Source of the DNA: Clostridia bacterium
GTDB taxonomy: Bacteria; Bacillota; Clostridia; UMGS1840
Length of the DNA: 64,000 bases
Assembly: GCA_017625695.1 (NCBI GenBank)
Contig: JAGAKI010000079.1
Coordinates: 72,299 to 136,298, forward strand
Direction: 5' to 3'
In this document: positions 34,888-41,530 of the stretch, one piece after another
Numbering within the stretch: the first letter of the stretch is position 1
How the letters are laid out: the number at the start of each line of letters is the position of its first letter
Notes under the pieces: generated by a model
Seen by the model: the letters and a program-made list of their open reading frames with translations, nothing else
Told to the model about the DNA's origin: nothing
The model's database searches: none
Program-made: the position numbers and the translations under genes

Positions 34888-35313
34888 ATGAAAAACGAAT
34901 TTATGCTCCTTGCCATAGAAGAAGCGAAAAAAGACCCCAACGAGGTTCCCGTAGGTGCTGTTTTAGTAAAAAACAAAGAAGTCATTGCCGCCGCTCACAA
35001 TGAATGTGTGGCACAAAACGGCATCTGCCATGCGGAATTATTGGCGATTGAAAGAGGACTGGAAAAATTAGGGACTACCTATTTGGAGGATTGCGAGTTA
35101 TATGTGACCAAGGAGCCTTGCCTGATGTGCTTCGGTGCCACCGTCAACGCCCGTGTAAAGCGGGTGTATTTCGGTTGTTATGACATAAAATACGGTGCCA
35201 TGGAGCAGATTGAAAAGTTGGGCTATCTTCATAAAATTAACCATGTTCCCGAAACTTACGGGGGCATTATGGAAGCAGAATGTAAAACCTTACTGGAGGA
35301 ATTTTTCCGATGA
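34888..35313 (+). CDS. tadA: tRNA-specific adenosine deaminase
   Basis: CDA zinc motifs HAE and PCLMC. Confidence 0.92.
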   Translation: MKNEFMLLAIEEAKKDPNEVPVGAVLVKNKEVIAAAHNECVAQNGICHAELLAIERGLEKLGTTYLEDCELYVTKEPCLMCFGATVNARVKRVYFGCYDIKYGAMEQIEKLGYLHKINHVPETYGGIMEAECKTLLEEFFR

Positions 35314-36875
35314 ATTTTTTGATAAAGGACTTAAAGTTTCCTGTCAGCTATACCGACAGCGAAGCAATTTCTTTTATGAAAAATACCTATTTCCCCCGCG
35401 GAAAGGTGACTGTCTATAAAAAATCGGTAGATGCCCGCAAAAAAGAGGACATCTCATTTGTATATACTTTTTTGGTGGATGCCCAAAAAATTCCGCCAAA
35501 ACTCAAGAAAAAAACCGCTCCCTACCGGGAGAAAACACTGTCGTTTTCTTATGGTAACAAACAACTTCCCCATCGTCCCGTGGTGGTGGGAGCCGGGCCG
35601 GGCGGTCTTTTTTGTGCTTATTTCCTGGCGAAAAACGGGTATGCGCCCATTGTATTGGAGCGTGGCGAACCCATTGAAGAACGGGTGAAAACCGTGGACG
35701 GTTTTTTTCTGGGCAAGCCGTTGAACAAAGAATCCAATGTTCAGTTTGGTGAGGGCGGTGCCGGTGCTTTTTCCGACGGAAAGCTGACCACCCGTATCAA
35801 CGACCCCCTGTCGGCAGAGGTGGTACGCTTACTGGCAGAGCATAGCGGTTTACCCCACCTTGCCTATCAGGCAAAACCGCATATCGGGACCGATAAATTA
35901 CGCACCTGTGTGAAAAATCTGCGGGAAGAAATTATCCGTTACGGCGGTACTTTTTCTTTTCACAGCCGTCTTTCTGACATTGCACTAACCAATGGAAACA
36001 TTACTTCCGTTACCGTAAATGATACCCAAATAATCCCCGCATCCGTGGTGGTTTTAGCAACCGGACACAGTGCCAAAGATGTGTACAATTTACTTTACAA
36101 AAAAGAAATTCCCTTATCCAAAAAACCCTTTTCCGTGGGTGTCAGAGTAGAACATTTTCGTTCGGTCATCGATACCATCCAATACGGCTCCTTTGCCGGA
36201 CATCCCAACTTGGGGGCGGCAGACTATCAGGTGTTTCATCACGCGTCAAACGGACATACGGCATACAGCTTTTGTATGTGTCCCGGCGGTGTGGTGGTAC
36301 CCAGTCAGTCGGAAGAAGAATCCATTTTAGTTAACGGGATGAGCTATTTCGCCCGTGACGGAAAAAATTCCAATTCCGCCCTTTGTGTGTCGGTCTCTCC
36401 CGAAGATTTTGGTGATGGCTTGTTTGATGGACTTCATTTGATTGAAACCTTAGAAAAAACTGCCTATCAGCTGGCAGGTGCCAATCAGCATGCCCCCTTT
36501 ACTACTTCTTTTGATTTTACAGGGGTGAAGCCGACAGGAGCCTATCCCGAACCCACCTATTCGCTGGGTGTCACCGAAGTGAATTTCGAGAAACTGTTTC
36601 CCGCTTTTGTCACCGAAGCCTTGCGGGAAGGGCTGCAGACATTCGAGCAGAAAATGCCCGGATTTTTAAGTCAGGGATGCATTTTCACAGGGGTGGAAAC
36701 CCGTACCTCTTCCCCTCTTCGCATCAACCGGAACGAAGCACTTCAGTCGGACAAAGCTATCGGCTTGTATCCTTGCGGAGAAGGGGCAGGCTATGCCGGC
36801 GGTATCGTATCGGCTGCTGTGGACGGCATGAAAATTGCGGGTAAAATTATGGAGCAGTTTCAACCATTGGGGTAA
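35310..36875 (+). CDS. FAD-dependent oxidoreductase (COG2509-like)
   Basis: VVVGAGPGG dinucleotide-binding motif. 521 aa. Confidence 0.75.
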   Translation: MNFLIKDLKFPVSYTDSEAISFMKNTYFPRGKVTVYKKSVDARKKEDISFVYTFLVDAQKIPPKLKKKTAPYREKTLSFSYGNKQLPHRPVVVGAGPGGLFCAYFLAKNGYAPIVLERGEPIEERVKTVDGFFLGKPLNKESNVQFGEGGAGAFSDGKLTTRINDPLSAEVVRLLAEHSGLPHLAYQAKPHIGTDKLRTCVKNLREEIIRYGGTFSFHSRLSDIALTNGNITSVTVNDTQIIPASVVVLATGHSAKDVYNLLYKKEIPLSKKPFSVGVRVEHFRSVIDTIQYGSFAGHPNLGAADYQVFHHASNGHTAYSFCMCPGGVVVPSQSEEESILVNGMSYFARDGKNSNSALCVSVSPEDFGDGLFDGLHLIETLEKTAYQLAGANQHAPFTTSFDFTGVKPTGAYPEPTYSLGVTEVNFEKLFPAFVTEALREGLQTFEQKMPGFLSQGCIFTGVETRTSSPLRINRNEALQSDKAIGLYPCGEGAGYAGGIVSAAVDGMKIAGKIMEQFQPLG

Positions 36876-36911
36876 GATTTGATTTCCCTCCGAAAAATCC
36901 GTAAAAATTTG

Positions 36912-36940
36912 TTGACATCGGAAGAAAACTGTGGTATACT
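36912..36940 (+). promoter_or_regulatory. near-consensus sigma-A promoter of the potA leader
   Basis: TTGACA-17 nt-TATACT with an extended-10 TGG. Confidence 0.7.
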
Positions 36941-37267
36941 GAGCGTGTCATCAAAATTTGGAACGAAAGGTTCCCGAGGGTGAATATTACGACCGCTTGA
37001 ATTTGTAAAACCCTTTCAAGCTAAGGCCAGACGGACAGCCGGGTCGAACGCCGAAACGCCGGATAAAAACATCCGGTTGGCAGGGAAAACCTGCCTTATT
37101 GATTGAGTTAGAAGCTCAAATTTTATAAGTTGGTTCCTTTACAACCATGTGCCAAACAGCACACATCGACTTGTGAAACGGTCAATAAGAGTACGCGTAT
37201 CAAACTCTGAAACCTATCCAAATTGTCAAGGGGTGTTTTGTCCCCTTTGGGAAAACGATTCTTACAA

Positions 37268-37304
37268 GCGGTGTGTCTTAGGGCATACCGCTTTTTGTTT
37301 TTTT
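37268..37304 (+). terminator. leader (attenuator) terminator upstream of potA
   Basis: 8-bp stem GCGGTGTG/CATACCGC followed by TTTTTGTTTTTTT. It ends 30 nt before the potA GTG. Confidence 0.7.
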
Positions 37305-37333
37305 CTAAATTTTCGGGGAAGGGTGAAGCCTTA

Positions 37334-38455
37334 GTGGAACATAAAAAGATTATTGAATTACAAAATATTTCCAAGGAGTTTGAAGACGAACAGGTGTTAA
37401 GCTCCATCAATTTAGATATCTATGACAAGCAGTTTGTGACCTTGCTTGGTCCCTCCGGTTGCGGAAAAACCACCACCTTACGAATTGTGGGCGGTTTTGA
37501 AACTCCCGATCAGGGGGATGTGCTGTTTGAGGGAAAACGCATCAACGATGTGCCTGCCCACAAGAGAAGCATCAACACCGTGTTTCAGAAATATGCTTTG
37601 TTCCCTCATTTGAATGTGTTTGAAAATGTGGCATTTTCTCTGCGGTTACAGAAACTTCCCAATGCGGAAATTATCAAACGTGTGAAAGAAATGCTGGAAC
37701 TGGTTGCCCTAAAAGGCTTCGAGCGAAAAAACGTAACCAAATTATCCGGCGGTCAGCAACAGCGTGTTGCCATCGCCAGAGCCTTAATCAGCCATCCCCG
37801 TGTGTTGTTGCTGGACGAGCCTCTGGGTGCGTTGGACTTAAAGCTTCGGAAAGATATGCAGAACGAACTGAAAAAAATCCAGAAACAGACCGGCATCACC
37901 TTTATCTATGTTACCCACGACCAGGAGGAAGCACTCTCCATGTCTGACGTGGTAGTAGTTATGGCAGAGGGCAAAATTCAGCAAATCGGAACTCCAACCG
38001 ATATCTATAACGAACCCGTCAATGCATTTGTTGCTGACTTTATCGGTGAAAGTAACATTGTAGACGGCATTATGAACGAAGATTATAAGGTTACCTTCTC
38101 CGGACACACCTTCCAATGTGTGGATAAAGGCTTTGCCCCCGGGGAAGCGGTGGATGTTGTGGTACGTCCCGAAGATGTGGATGTGGTAAACGTAGCCGAC
38201 GGAATGTTACAGGGGACTGTAACTTCTGTTACCTTCAAAGGGGTTCACTATGAAATCATCGTGGATATCGGTGGTTTCAAATGGATGATTCAGTCCACTG
38301 ATTTTGTGGATGTGAATGCCAATATCGGCATCTTTATTGAACCCGATGCCATTCATATTATGAAGAAATCCGAATTCTCCGGTCAGTACGGTGACTATTC
38401 TACCTTCTCTGACGAAATTGAAGAACTGGGAAACTCCGAAACGGTAGGTGACTAA
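37334..38455 (+). CDS. potA: spermidine/putrescine ABC transporter ATP-binding protein
   Basis: [30 protein letters not shown], and a C-terminal TOBE-like domain. GTG start follows a GGGGAAGGGTGA RBS. Confidence 0.92.
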
Positions 38456-39272
38456 GATGGAAAAAACCAGGAAAAATCTTGGCAGACTGATTGCAGCACC
38501 TCATATCCTCTGGTCAGTTCTGTTTATTTTGGCACCTCTCATTTTTGTGGTGTATTATACCTTTACCGATGCCTATGGCACCTTCACCTGGGAAAATATT
38601 TTCGCCTTGAAGGAACATGCCAACACCTTTTTAATTTCGGTGAGTCTGTCGGTCATTGCTACCTTTATTTGCTTTTTGGTGGGATATCCTCTGGCGTATC
38701 TGATTGCCGGATATAAGGAAAAATCTCAGAAAATTATGATTACCCTGTTGATGCTTCCCATGTGGACCAATCTGTTAATCCGTACCTACTCCATGATGGC
38801 AATTATGGACGACGGCGGATTTTTAAACTCCATTTTAGGGGCATTGAATCTTGGCAAAGTGCATCTCATCGGTACCAAGGGTGCCGTCATTTTCGGGATG
38901 GTATACGATTTTCTGCCCTATATGGTGCTTCCCATCTATACCATCATTTCCAAGCTGGATAAAAACCTGCTGGAAGCCGCAAGAGACCTTGGCTGTAACC
39001 CCTTCCAGGTTCTTTGGAAAGTGGTGCTTCCCCTTTCCTCCGGCGGTATCATTTCCGGCATCACCATGGTGTTCGTTCCCTCCATTTCCACCTTCTACAT
39101 TTCTCAGAAGTTGGGCGGCGGTACCTTTGAACTCATCGGTGACACCATCGAACGCCAATTCCAAAACGTATCCACCTACAACGTAGGTGCCGCAATATCG
39201 TTAGTTATGATGATTTTAGTTTTGGTTTCGCTTGCAGTGATGAACCGCTTCACAAAGGAAGAGGCGTCGTAA
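38448..39272 (+). CDS. potB: spermidine/putrescine ABC transporter permease
   Basis: 6 TM, EAARDLG loop. Start is GTG at 38448 or ATG at 38457. Confidence 0.9.
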
Positions 39273-39428
39273 ACAAGCGCCTTTCCGTCTTTACGTTCCC
39301 TTGCGTACACTCAGTACGCGGCGTTCTCTGAAAGAGCGGAAATGCATCTTGTTTTCATCCGCCTCATTGATATGGAAGAGGCGTCATAACAGCCATCGGC
39401 TGTTTTTCATCCGCCTCATTGGTATCTT

Positions 39429-39455
39429 GTAGGGGACGATGCCCACATCGTCCCG
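39429..39455. repeat. REP-like palindromic hairpin inside the pot operon
   Basis: GTAGGGGACGATGCCCACATCGTCCCG. Confidence 0.85.
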
Positions 39456-39518
39456 TGTAACCGGTCACCAACAAACGGGAGGAGAACATTCCTCCCCTAC
39501 ACAGAAAGGTAAAAAAAT

Positions 39519-40325
39519 ATGAAAGCTTTGTCCCGAATCTATACCGCTTTGATTTTCATCATTTTATACATCCCCATTGTGGTGCTGATGCTGTTTTCCT
39601 TTAACTCTACAGCCAACACCGGTGATCTGACGGGGCTTTCTTTGTATTGGTACCGTGAGCTGTTTTCCTCTCCCGATACCTTCAACGCCTTAAAAAATAC
39701 CCTGGTGCTGGCAGTCAGTGCATCAGTAATTTCCACTGTCATCGGAACTGCGGCAGCGGTGGGACTTTGTAAATTCAAAAAAAACTTCTTTAAAAATTCG
39801 GTCCTTTCTGTCACCAATATTCCCATGATGAATCCCGATATCGTAACCGGGATTTCCATGATGCTTCTGTTTGTGTTTTTAGGAACCTTATTGGGCAGAG
39901 ATGAAAAGCTGGGATTCACAACCCTTCTGATTGCCCATGTTACCTTCTGTCTGCCCTATGTAATTTTATCAGTACGTCCCAAAATCTTAACCATGCCCCG
40001 TTCCTTACCCGAAGCGGCACAGGATTTGGGTTGTACCCCTCTGCAGTCCTTCTTTAAAGTGGAACTGCCTCAGATTTTACCCGGTGTGATTTCCGGATTT
40101 ATTCTGGCATTTACCTTGTCGTTGGATGATTTTGTCATTAGTTACTTCACCACGGGAAACGATTTTCAGACCTTACCGTTACTCATTTATTCCATGACCA
40201 AAAAAGAGGTGAAACCGGACATCTACGCCCTTTCCACCTTAATGATTTTAACAGTTACGGTGCTGTTGATACTCTCTAACGTATCGTCCAAAGAAAAAAG
40301 CACAGAAAGAAGGTTGACACTGTAA
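39519..40325 (+). CDS. potC: spermidine/putrescine ABC transporter permease
   Basis: 6 TM, EAAQDLG loop. Confidence 0.9.
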   Translation: MKALSRIYTALIFIILYIPIVVLMLFSFNSTANTGDLTGLSLYWYRELFSSPDTFNALKNTLVLAVSASVISTVIGTAAAVGLCKFKKNFFKNSVLSVTNIPMMNPDIVTGISMMLLFVFLGTLLGRDEKLGFTTLLIAHVTFCLPYVILSVRPKILTMPRSLPEAAQDLGCTPLQSFFKVELPQILPGVISGFILAFTLSLDDFVISYFTTGNDFQTLPLLIYSMTKKEVKPDIYALSTLMILTVTVLLILSNVSSKEKSTERRLTL

Positions 40326-41530
40326 TGAAAAAAGTTCTTTTGTTATGGGTGGTATCGGTTTTTCTGGCGGTTTCTCTTTCCGGATGCGGCGGGCAGTCTG
40401 AAAAACTCACCTTAAATGTATATAACTGGGGAGAATATATTTCCGATGGCAGTGAAGATTCTCTGGATGTGAATGAAGAATTTGAAAACTACTGCCGTGA
40501 TGAGCTGGGGATGGAGGTTTCGGTCAACTATACCACCTACGCCAGCAACGAGGATATGTATAACAAACTAAAAAGCGGTTCCGCTACCTACGATGTTGTG
40601 ATTCCCTCGGAATATATGATTGAAAAAATGATAGCAGAGGATATGCTCTCTCCCCTTGATTTTTCCAATATCCCCAACTATCAGTATATTGACGACAATT
40701 TTAAAAACCTGTTTTTCGACCCGGACAATACCTATTCGGTGCCCTACACCTACGGAATGGTGGGTATTATCTACAACAGCGAAATGGTTGCAGAAGAAGA
40801 CTTGGGAAGCTGGGATTTACTCTGGAACGAAACCTACAAAGGGCAGATTCTGCAGTTCAACAACCCCCGTGATGCCTTTGGAACTGCTATCTACTGGGCA
40901 AAAGACAGCGTAAACTCCACCGACCCTGCGGTATGGCAGTCTGCAGTGGAAAAGTTAAAAGCACAGAAGCCCCTCATCCAAAGCTATGTTATGGACGAAA
41001 TTTTCAATAAAATGAAAAATGGCTCTGCTGCCATTGCTCCTTACTATGCAGGCGATTATCTCACCATGTATGATTCCAACGATTTATTAGGCTTCTACTA
41101 TCCCGAAGAGGGGACAAACGTGTTTGTAGATGCGATGTGCGTCCCCGCCTGTGCCAAAAATCAGGAGTTGGCAGAACTCTATATCAACTTTATGCTGGAA
41201 AAAGAAATTGCTATCGCCAATGCAGAATACATCGGCTATGCATCTCCCCATACCTTAGTCCGTGAAGATGAGGACTACATCGCCTATATGCAAGACTGGC
41301 ACGATGATGCAATGGAAATTCTCTACGCCCAAGACTCGGCAGTCAAAACCGAATATTACGAAAGTTTAGATACCGATACACTGTCATTGCAAAACAGTCT
41401 GTGGGAAACCTTAAAAATTGAAAATGCGGTGGAACCCTGGATTTATATGACTGCGGGAACCATTGTAGGAGCATTGATTTTATTCTTCCTATATAGCTAT
41501 TTTGTAAAAAGATACCGCAATCATTATTAA
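40325..41530 (+). CDS. potD: spermidine/putrescine-binding lipoprotein
   Basis: Lipobox LSGCGG and a PotD/PotF-type SBP body. An extra C-terminal hydrophobic helix (TAGTIVGALILFFLYSYF) is present. Confidence 0.85.
   Translation: MKKVLLLWVVSVFLAVSLSGCGGQSEKLTLNVYNWGEYISDGSEDSLDVNEEFENYCRDELGMEVSVNYTTYASNEDMYNKLKSGSATYDVVIPSEYMIEKMIAEDMLSPLDFSNIPNYQYIDDNFKNLFFDPDNTYSVPYTYGMVGIIYNSEMVAEEDLGSWDLLWNETYKGQILQFNNPRDAFGTAIYWAKDSVNSTDPAVWQSAVEKLKAQKPLIQSYVMDEIFNKMKNGSAAIAPYYAGDYLTMYDSNDLLGFYYPEEGTNVFVDAMCVPACAKNQELAELYINFMLEKEIAIANAEYIGYASPHTLVREDEDYIAYMQDWHDDAMEILYAQDSAVKTEYYESLDTDTLSLQNSLWETLKIENAVEPWIYMTAGTIVGALILFFLYSYFVKRYRNHY

Follow-up and report, generated by a model that had tools for sequence, protein, structure and literature searches.

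The window, by which we mean the whole 64,000-nt stretch of DNA that was analyzed (GC content, 43.7%), contains a potABCD operon at positions 37334 to 41530; the operon and the elements of its leader are on the plus strand. Pfam and NCBIfam models confirmed each of the four genes as they had been named in the preliminary description of this DNA: potA (37334 to 38455, with a GTG start at 37334), potB (38448 to 39272), potC (39519 to 40325), and potD (40325 to 41530). PotA scored above the cutoffs of the equivalog model NF043075 and the subfamily model TIGR01187, and the PotB, PotC, and PotD models were the top matches for the other three proteins. The Shine-Dalgarno sequence of potA, GGGGAAGGG, lies at about 37315 to 37326. 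Within the operon, potB and potC are separated by a noncoding gap of 246 nt (39273 to 39518) that contains a direct repeat (TTTTCATCCGCCTCATTG, two copies) and strong hairpins (e.g., GGGGACGATGCCCACATCGTCCC) and that has no match in Rfam. A metagenome contig encoding an identical PotA protein (L121) has a potB-potC gap of equal size. The gap may have arisen by insertion of a small repeat, or it may serve as an internal site of regulation or processing.

A consensus scan placed a sigma-70-type promoter at 36912 to 36940, with a −35 box TTGACA (36912 to 36917), a 17-nt spacer, and a −10 box TATACT (36935 to 36940) that is extended by TG at 36932 to 36933 (TGgTATACT). The promoter matches 11 of 12 consensus positions, in agreement with the near-consensus promoter reported before, and transcription is predicted to start near 36947. 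The upstream FAD-dependent gene (35310 to 36875) ends 37 nt before the −35 box (36875 to 36912); no terminator was detected between the two, and transcription may read through from this gene into the leader. Between the promoter and potA lies a structured leader of ∼390 nt that is free of ORFs: no frame in this interval had support in the ORF list of the window, and none was conserved. The leader, folded as a 399-nt sequence, was more stable than every one of 100 dinucleotide shuffles (z = −3.28). In an alignment of 96 sequences from relatives, a TGnTATAAT box occurs at the equivalent relative place upstream, and because its distance is fixed, the 5′ end of the RNA is likely conserved too.

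In a scan of the whole window, the sole Rfam match at the gathering level was RF02440 (SpF59, or ldcC RNA), at 36990 to 37054. The match scored 63.1 bits (gathering score, 37.2; E = 5.6e-09 over the whole window) and spanned model positions 1 to 54 of 54. The hairpin and the invariant sequences of the family are present. Stem P1 pairs CGACC (36990 to 36994) with GGUCG (37042 to 37046), inner stem P1i, listed as a hairpin in the preliminary description, pairs GCUUGAA (36995 to 37001) with UUCAAGC (37015 to 37021), and both stems are intact in the window and covary strongly among relatives. The large 3′ bulge carries the invariant AAGGCCAnACGGACAGCCGGGUC (within 37023 to 37046), the invariant bulge AAGGCCAGACGGACAGCCGG lies at 37023 to 37042, and the GCCGA tail follows at 37050 to 37054. 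Hosts of the family are Firmicutes or, rarely, Spirochaetes; the loci closest to the window leader come from Oscillospiraceae and other Clostridia, at ∼70% nucleotide identity. The organism is uncultured, and a protein identical to its PotA was found on metagenome contigs only.

The ldcC motif was described as a bulged hairpin rich in invariant nucleotides, some of which may form a pseudoknot; it is widespread in Firmicutes and occupies the 5′ untranslated regions (UTRs) of potA and of genes for the decarboxylases of arginine, ornithine, and SAM, and its authors suggested that it contributes to polyamine homeostasis (Weinberg et al. 2017, PMC5737381). The element in the window likewise occupies the 5′ UTR of such a gene, downstream of the promoter at 36912 and upstream of the potA start at 37334. 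The leader had earlier been matched to no known class and proposed as a novel riboswitch or attenuator. Since it matches RF02440, and the link to potA was already in PMC5737381, the claim of novelty falls; judged by its sequence and predicted fold, the window leader is an additional member of the known ldcC family, an orphan candidate cis-regulator of polyamine genes, and not a new class. The other half of the proposal, a cis-acting, riboswitch-like leader with a terminator before potABCD, stands. Permissive searches (E up to 10) of positions 36700 to 37500 and of one canonical relative returned other Rfam families only far below their gathering scores. At the same threshold there was no SAM-family match in 36700 to 37500 and no T-box or M-box match in the leader.

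We collected 120 genome loci with the invariant ldcC 20-mer, as well as 120 metagenome loci, and found that the conservation does not end with the Rfam model. When the genome loci were aligned on the motif, nearly all of them continued for a further 150 to 170 nt with near-identical sequence. The conserved order is GCCGA, a GGCAAC hairpin, UUAUUGAUU, GAGUuaaaaGCUC, AAAUUU, UAUAAGUUGG, a GGUU..AACC hairpin, and a hairpin of variable sequence, followed by AACUUGUGAAAyGGUCAAUAAGAGU, an AGUAA..UUGCU hairpin, and AUAUAGACUCUGA. The same blocks are present in the window leader. Over the genome and metagenome loci, the conservation covers ∼230 nt (36963 to 37211 in the window) versus 54 nt in the Rfam model. 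The element occurs in Bacilli, Clostridia, and Negativicutes, and the extended conservation spans Paenibacillus, Neobacillus, Priestia, Oscillospiraceae, Lachnospiraceae, and Acidaminococcus.

The conserved architecture consists of nine helices (P1, P1i, P2, P3, P4, P5, P6, P8, and P9) and a closing duplex between the 5′ and 3′ ends. RNAalifold, run on a gappy MAFFT alignment of 96 sequences, missed the variable-length hairpins; in its place we specified the structure by hand and combined it with a covariance model and with anchored checks of each sequence. The structure (nine helices, 50 pairs) was specified on a MAFFT alignment of 36 sequences, all pairwise <86% identical. In the alignment not fitted to the structure, 94.6% of the cells could pair, compared with 31 to 47% when the partners were slid by 1 to 3 columns, and the covariation score was 0.210 versus 0.111 for shuffled alignments (0 of 500 as high). 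Two-sided compensatory changes fell mainly in P1, P1i (5 of 5 pairs), P2 (6 of 6), P4 (3 of 4), and P6. Helices P3, P5, P8, and P9 are nearly invariant, with only U·G to U-A changes, which are consistent with pairing and which covariation cannot prove. An all-against-all scan of mutual information, blind to invariant positions, ranked only modeled helices at the top and revealed no further pseudoknots or tertiary pairs. The nucleotides of the possible pseudoknot published for ldcC never vary in the relatives, so that covariation is silent there.

From the 36-sequence alignment we built a covariance model, R1, with 231 positions and 50 pairs. R1 had a single match in the window, at 36963 to 37211 (166.5 bits; E, ∼1e-46; positions 1 to 231), which is far beyond chance and, together with the folding z score, bears out the claim of a structured leader. 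Full-length matches (133 to 247 bits) were found in almost every genuine ldcC locus, and 97.5% of the cells paired in an R1-fitted alignment of 99 sequences. About three-quarters of the conserved structure has no counterpart in Rfam, and no Rfam family covered the 3′ part in scans of the window leader and one canonical relative. This much can be said in favor of the preliminary description, as can the fact that the family it overlooked is an orphan without a known ligand. The searchable literature on the ldcC motif, SpF59, and polyamine riboswitches contained no description of the extended RNA, although flanking conservation may have been noted in the supplement of the 2017 paper.

The helices can be followed along the window leader, where all of the hairpins listed in the preliminary description were found at their places (36960 to 36974, 36995 to 37021, 37058 to 37077, 37079 to 37095, and 37228 to 37247). 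The 5′ segment (36955 to 36974) holds two overlapping elements, the local hairpin P0 (GGAAC-GAAAG-GUUCC, 36960 to 36974), which has an equivalent in relatives (UUGGAAAG/CUUUCCAA), and the candidate 5′ strand of the closing duplex P10 (AAUUUGGA, 36955 to 36962). The latter would pair with UCCAAAUU at 37217 to 37224, in a register that is our best estimate. Across loci, the 5′/3′ duplexes averaged −16.8 kcal/mol when both strands came from the same locus and −14.4 kcal/mol (standard deviation [sd], 0.25) when they were permuted; because this complementarity is locus specific, the RNA appears to be closed by a terminal duplex. In some Bacilli loci with genes of the carboxyspermidine dehydrogenase type (e.g., L042, L032, and L018), the closing duplex is very long (∼30 pairs), and leaders of this type have a core-to-ORF distance of 200 to 320 nt and a full length of >400 nt.

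After the ldcC hairpin comes P2′ (GCCGGAU-aaaaac-AUCCGGU, 37058 to 37077), which is clade specific and found in potA-type leaders of Oscillospiraceae-like genomes. Long linkers at this place fold as two hairpins in 11 of 12 cases, with counterparts of P2′ at the matching position and of different sequence. The next hairpin, P2 (GGCAGG-gaaaa-CCUGCC, 37079 to 37095), is the one whose six pairs all covary. It is followed by the constant 3′ junction (37096 to 37188), defined by the comparative alignment, in which P3 (UUAUUGAUU, 37096 to 37104, with GGUCAAUAA, 37180 to 37188) encloses four further helices: P4 (GAGU/GCUC, 37105 to 37117), P5 (UAUAAGUU, 37124 to 37131, with GACUUGUG, 37168 to 37175), P6 (GGUU/AACC, 37132 to 37146), and P7 (UGUGC/GCACA, 37148 to 37163). 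P7 is a hairpin in essentially all loci and varies in sequence and length. In two loci (L120 and L195), the P6/P7 region carries an insertion of ∼150 nt, and a large extra domain is evidently tolerated there. P8 (GAGU, 37189 to 37192, with ACUC, 37204 to 37207) is near invariant in relatives. In the window it closes an 11-nt loop (37193 to 37203) where most relatives carry the P9 hairpin (AGUAA/UUGCU). Eight of the nine R1 helices are therefore intact in the window and P9 is missing, a short form shared with one other locus (L038). The hairpin between the core and the terminator (AAGGGG-uguuuugu-CCCCUU, 37228 to 37247) is not conserved in sequence; relatives also carry a hairpin in this interval.

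Two further features did not hold up among the relatives. An H-type pseudoknot had been proposed between AGGGT and ACCCT in the loop of P1i. It has no counterpart elsewhere, as both the P1i loop and the 5′ joiner are unconserved in the alignment, and we rejected it as specific to the window; chance alone would produce such a 5-mer match at an estimated rate of about 1 in 3. The second is a 9-codon frame (TTG ATT GAG TTA ... TAA) that runs through P3 and P4 of the consensus. It could point to ribosome-mediated attenuation of the SpeFL or MAGDIS type, with a short leader peptide, as arrest peptides are used by polyamine genes elsewhere. The frame begins within helix P3, has no Shine-Dalgarno sequence, and is broken by 1-nt deletions and by P4 insertions of variable length (e.g., in L015, L020, L012, and L089) that keep the pairing. 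We rejected it for these reasons, and since no other ORF is conserved, we give scarcely any credence to control by a leader peptide.

We also ran the search in the reverse direction, using a 23-mer of the 3′ domain as the query against metagenome contigs, and obtained 96 distinct matches with enough upstream sequence. The ldcC core was present upstream of the 3′ domain in 78 of these and present in diverged form in 6. In ∼11 of the 96, the ldcC hairpin was wholly absent, and the sequence read CCAUGCAAAUAUUUU, P2, UUAUUGAUUGAG. These leaders (metagenome loci L123, L133, L148, L188, L189, L203, L205, L207, L218, L167, and L138) keep P2 to P9 and precede genes for Orn/Lys/Arg decarboxylases or SpeD. 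The converse case was found once, at L087 (1211 to 1288), where only the ldcC domain matched R1 (positions 28 to 101, 44 bits); this genome locus has a degenerate remnant of the 3′ domain (CCATTATAAGTAGTGCC) after the ldcC domain. From the loci without ldcC and from L087 it follows that the part of the family that stays constant, its core, is the 3′ junction, which has no annotation. By this comparison, the ldcC hairpin is dispensable and peripheral, and the cataloged motif, published and modeled at 54 nt, is a peripheral module of a much larger conserved RNA of ∼230 to 270 nt. While the window leader shares with the ldcC/SpF59 family of PMC5737381 the full-length match, the bulged hairpin, the invariant nucleotides, the Firmicutes relatives, and the position before a polyamine gene, the extended element differs in that it adds eight helices and a candidate terminator/antiterminator platform, and in that ∼11% of the relatives found through the 3′ domain have no ldcC hairpin.

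To see which genes the RNA precedes, we scanned the first downstream ORF of 98 loci against Pfam. Each of the 98 belonged to one of four classes of polyamine genes, which encode Orn/Lys/Arg decarboxylases (28 loci), PotA-type ABC ATPases with a TOBE domain (25 loci), AdoMet decarboxylases (25 loci), and saccharopine dehydrogenase family enzymes of the carboxy(nor)spermidine dehydrogenase type (20 loci). The element was upstream of the gene and in the same orientation in all loci examined. All four gene classes make or import polyamines, with spermidine as the common end product, and we therefore infer that the effector is a polyamine, most likely spermidine. The ligand named here is a guess from gene context.

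The leader ends in an intrinsic terminator (37259 to 37304), just upstream of the ribosome binding site as first reported, with a stem at 37266 to 37293 (12 pairs, 6 of them G-C) and a T tract to 37304. A simple finder detected a strong intrinsic terminator no more than 400 nt past the core in 72 of 108 loci and none in the other 36. The 5′ foot of these terminators carries CA[AG]G in 74% of cases, compared with 12% in a control set of 418 terminators from those loci (Fisher P, ∼4e-26, a value inflated by the relatedness of the sequences). A duplex scan gave a second partner for this segment. In the window, UUCUUACAAGCGGUGUG (37259 to 37275), which comprises the 5′ foot and arm of the terminator, can pair with CACACAUCGACUUGUGAA (37160 to 37177), which comprises the 3′ strands of P7 and P5, in a duplex of 15 bp and −19.6 kcal/mol. 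In an unbiased duplex scan across the whole core, the best partner of the terminator arm was mostly these contiguous P7/P5 3′ strands. Because P7 varies among loci, the pairing could be tested by permutation: arms paired with the core of their own locus at an average of −12.69 kcal/mol, versus −10.63 kcal/mol (sd, 0.27) for permuted loci, with 0 of 10,000 permutations as good, although the sequences are related to each other, which inflates this and the other P values. A control segment paired with the arm at −6.6 kcal/mol. This pairing points to an antiterminator whose formation would be incompatible both with the terminator and with P5 and P7 of the junction.

The same evidence bears on whether the element is a trans-acting small RNA (sRNA), with the potA leader then unrelated to it. 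Rfam types RF02440 as "Gene; sRNA," the preliminary description had allowed for an sRNA plus a leader, and a prematurely terminated leader would look like a discrete small transcript. The constant position and orientation before polyamine genes, the contiguity of the conserved core up to the terminator region, and the covariation of the gene-proximal terminator arm with the core all couple the element to the downstream gene and its terminator. Moreover, no terminator directly follows the 54-nt motif: after the GGCAGG hairpin comes UUAUUGAUUG, which belongs to helix P3 and is no U tract. We consider an independent sRNA very improbable.

Folding energies were less clear than complementarity. The minimum free energy (MFE) structure of the nascent transcript contained the antiterminator in only 6 of 71 loci, and forcing it carried a mean penalty of +6.9 kcal/mol (window leader, +3.0 kcal/mol). 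Once the 3′ arm was included, the terminator state was ∼15 kcal/mol better. Nearest-neighbor energies thus do not favor the antiterminator, although its locus-specific complementarity is strongly supported; they leave the direction of the switch unsettled and, if anything, speak against an antiterminator that forms spontaneously. Since the energies favor the terminator state, termination may be the default and an effector may be needed to turn the operon on. In such an ON-type scheme, T-box-like or mediated by a protein, a trans effector of polyamine shortage would stabilize the antiterminator or remodel the junction; candidates for this effector are proteins, precursor metabolites, and RNAs such as tRNA.

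Besides the strongly favored terminator state and the rarity of the antiterminator among MFE structures, the ON-type scheme draws on the hairpin loops (UUAAAAG and ACUUUAY), which are highly conserved, as in RNAs that dock macromolecules; the conservation of the leader is unusually high even in such loops and would also fit a macromolecular partner. The size and multidomain layout of the leader resemble those of T-box leaders as well, which are likewise long, highly conserved Firmicutes leaders with a thermodynamically favored terminator and whose mutually exclusive terminator and antiterminator structures would have a counterpart here. Unlike a T-box, however, the window leader shows neither a T-box sequence nor, even at E up to 10, an Rfam match to the T-box or another family, and the genes concerned are polyamine genes and not genes related to aminoacyl-tRNAs. 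The flanking genes differ among loci, with no conserved regulator neighbor evident in an unsystematic look, and the spread of the RNA through Bacilli, Clostridia, and Negativicutes points to a universal effector rather than a lineage-specific protein. We regard ON-type antitermination as rather unlikely but as a serious rival, as is a macromolecular partner.

We consider it probable, by a modest degree of confidence, that the leader is a cis-acting transcription attenuation RNA of the ldcC family, most likely a polyamine-responsive OFF switch for potABCD. The leader would set the flow of RNA polymerase from the promoter at 36912 into the regulated operon. About 270 nt of the transcript (∼36955 to 37224) would fold closed, through the ldcC hairpin (P1/P1i), P2′, P2, the P3-to-P7 junction, and P8. 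With the junction folded, the terminator arm (37259 to 37275) would be free, the terminator (37266 to 37304) would form, and transcription would stop before potA. With the junction open, 37160 to 37177 would instead pair with 37259 to 37275, and this antiterminator would let the operon be transcribed. Plentiful polyamine, most likely spermidine, may stabilize the folded state, probably by binding directly to the junction, and would thereby provide negative feedback.

A terminator-based OFF switch triggered by spermidine has been validated experimentally in a variant of the SAM-I riboswitch, which is rare (13 representatives) and precedes polyamine biosynthesis genes, including ldcC, speE, and speB; its authors expect more polyamine riboswitch classes (Salvail et al. 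2023, PMC10853860). The window leader is alike in outline, with a polyamine gene downstream, an intrinsic terminator, a putative competing antiterminator, and a presumed OFF logic. It has neither the SAM-I architecture nor a SAM family match and appears to be an unrelated RNA. The extended ldcC RNA, known here from sequence, also differs in being widespread and in preceding the PotABCD importer as well. In the M-box, a large multihelix leader that responds to Mg2+, compaction driven by the cation hides the antiterminator strand and allows the terminator to form. The mechanism in the window leader may be analogous, although the two RNAs have no match in sequence or structure, nor one in Rfam.

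Polyamines are essential and abundant, and to our knowledge, how they are sensed in most Firmicutes is not known; we know of no validated bacterial polyamine riboswitch other than the rare SAM-I variant. We tentatively advance, as a possibility and short of a probable one, that the constant 3′ junction (P2 to P8/P9, ∼150 nt, 37079 to 37207) is the aptamer of a widespread, undescribed class of polyamine riboswitch in Firmicutes, probably for spermidine, with the ldcC hairpin as an optional accessory. If so, Bacilli, Clostridia, and Negativicutes, many of them sampled from the gut, would rely on this RNA as the main feedback on how much polyamine they make and take up. The unit to consider is the full leader of ∼230 to 270 nt, with the 54-nt hairpin as a side domain and with spermidine and its relatives as candidate ligands. 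In many Firmicutes, many of which are gut derived, leaders of potA, speD, speA/ldcC-type decarboxylase, and carboxyspermidine dehydrogenase genes would gain an annotation. The ldcC motif has been an orphan since 2017, and with a candidate expression platform now described, polyamine sensing by this family becomes directly testable.
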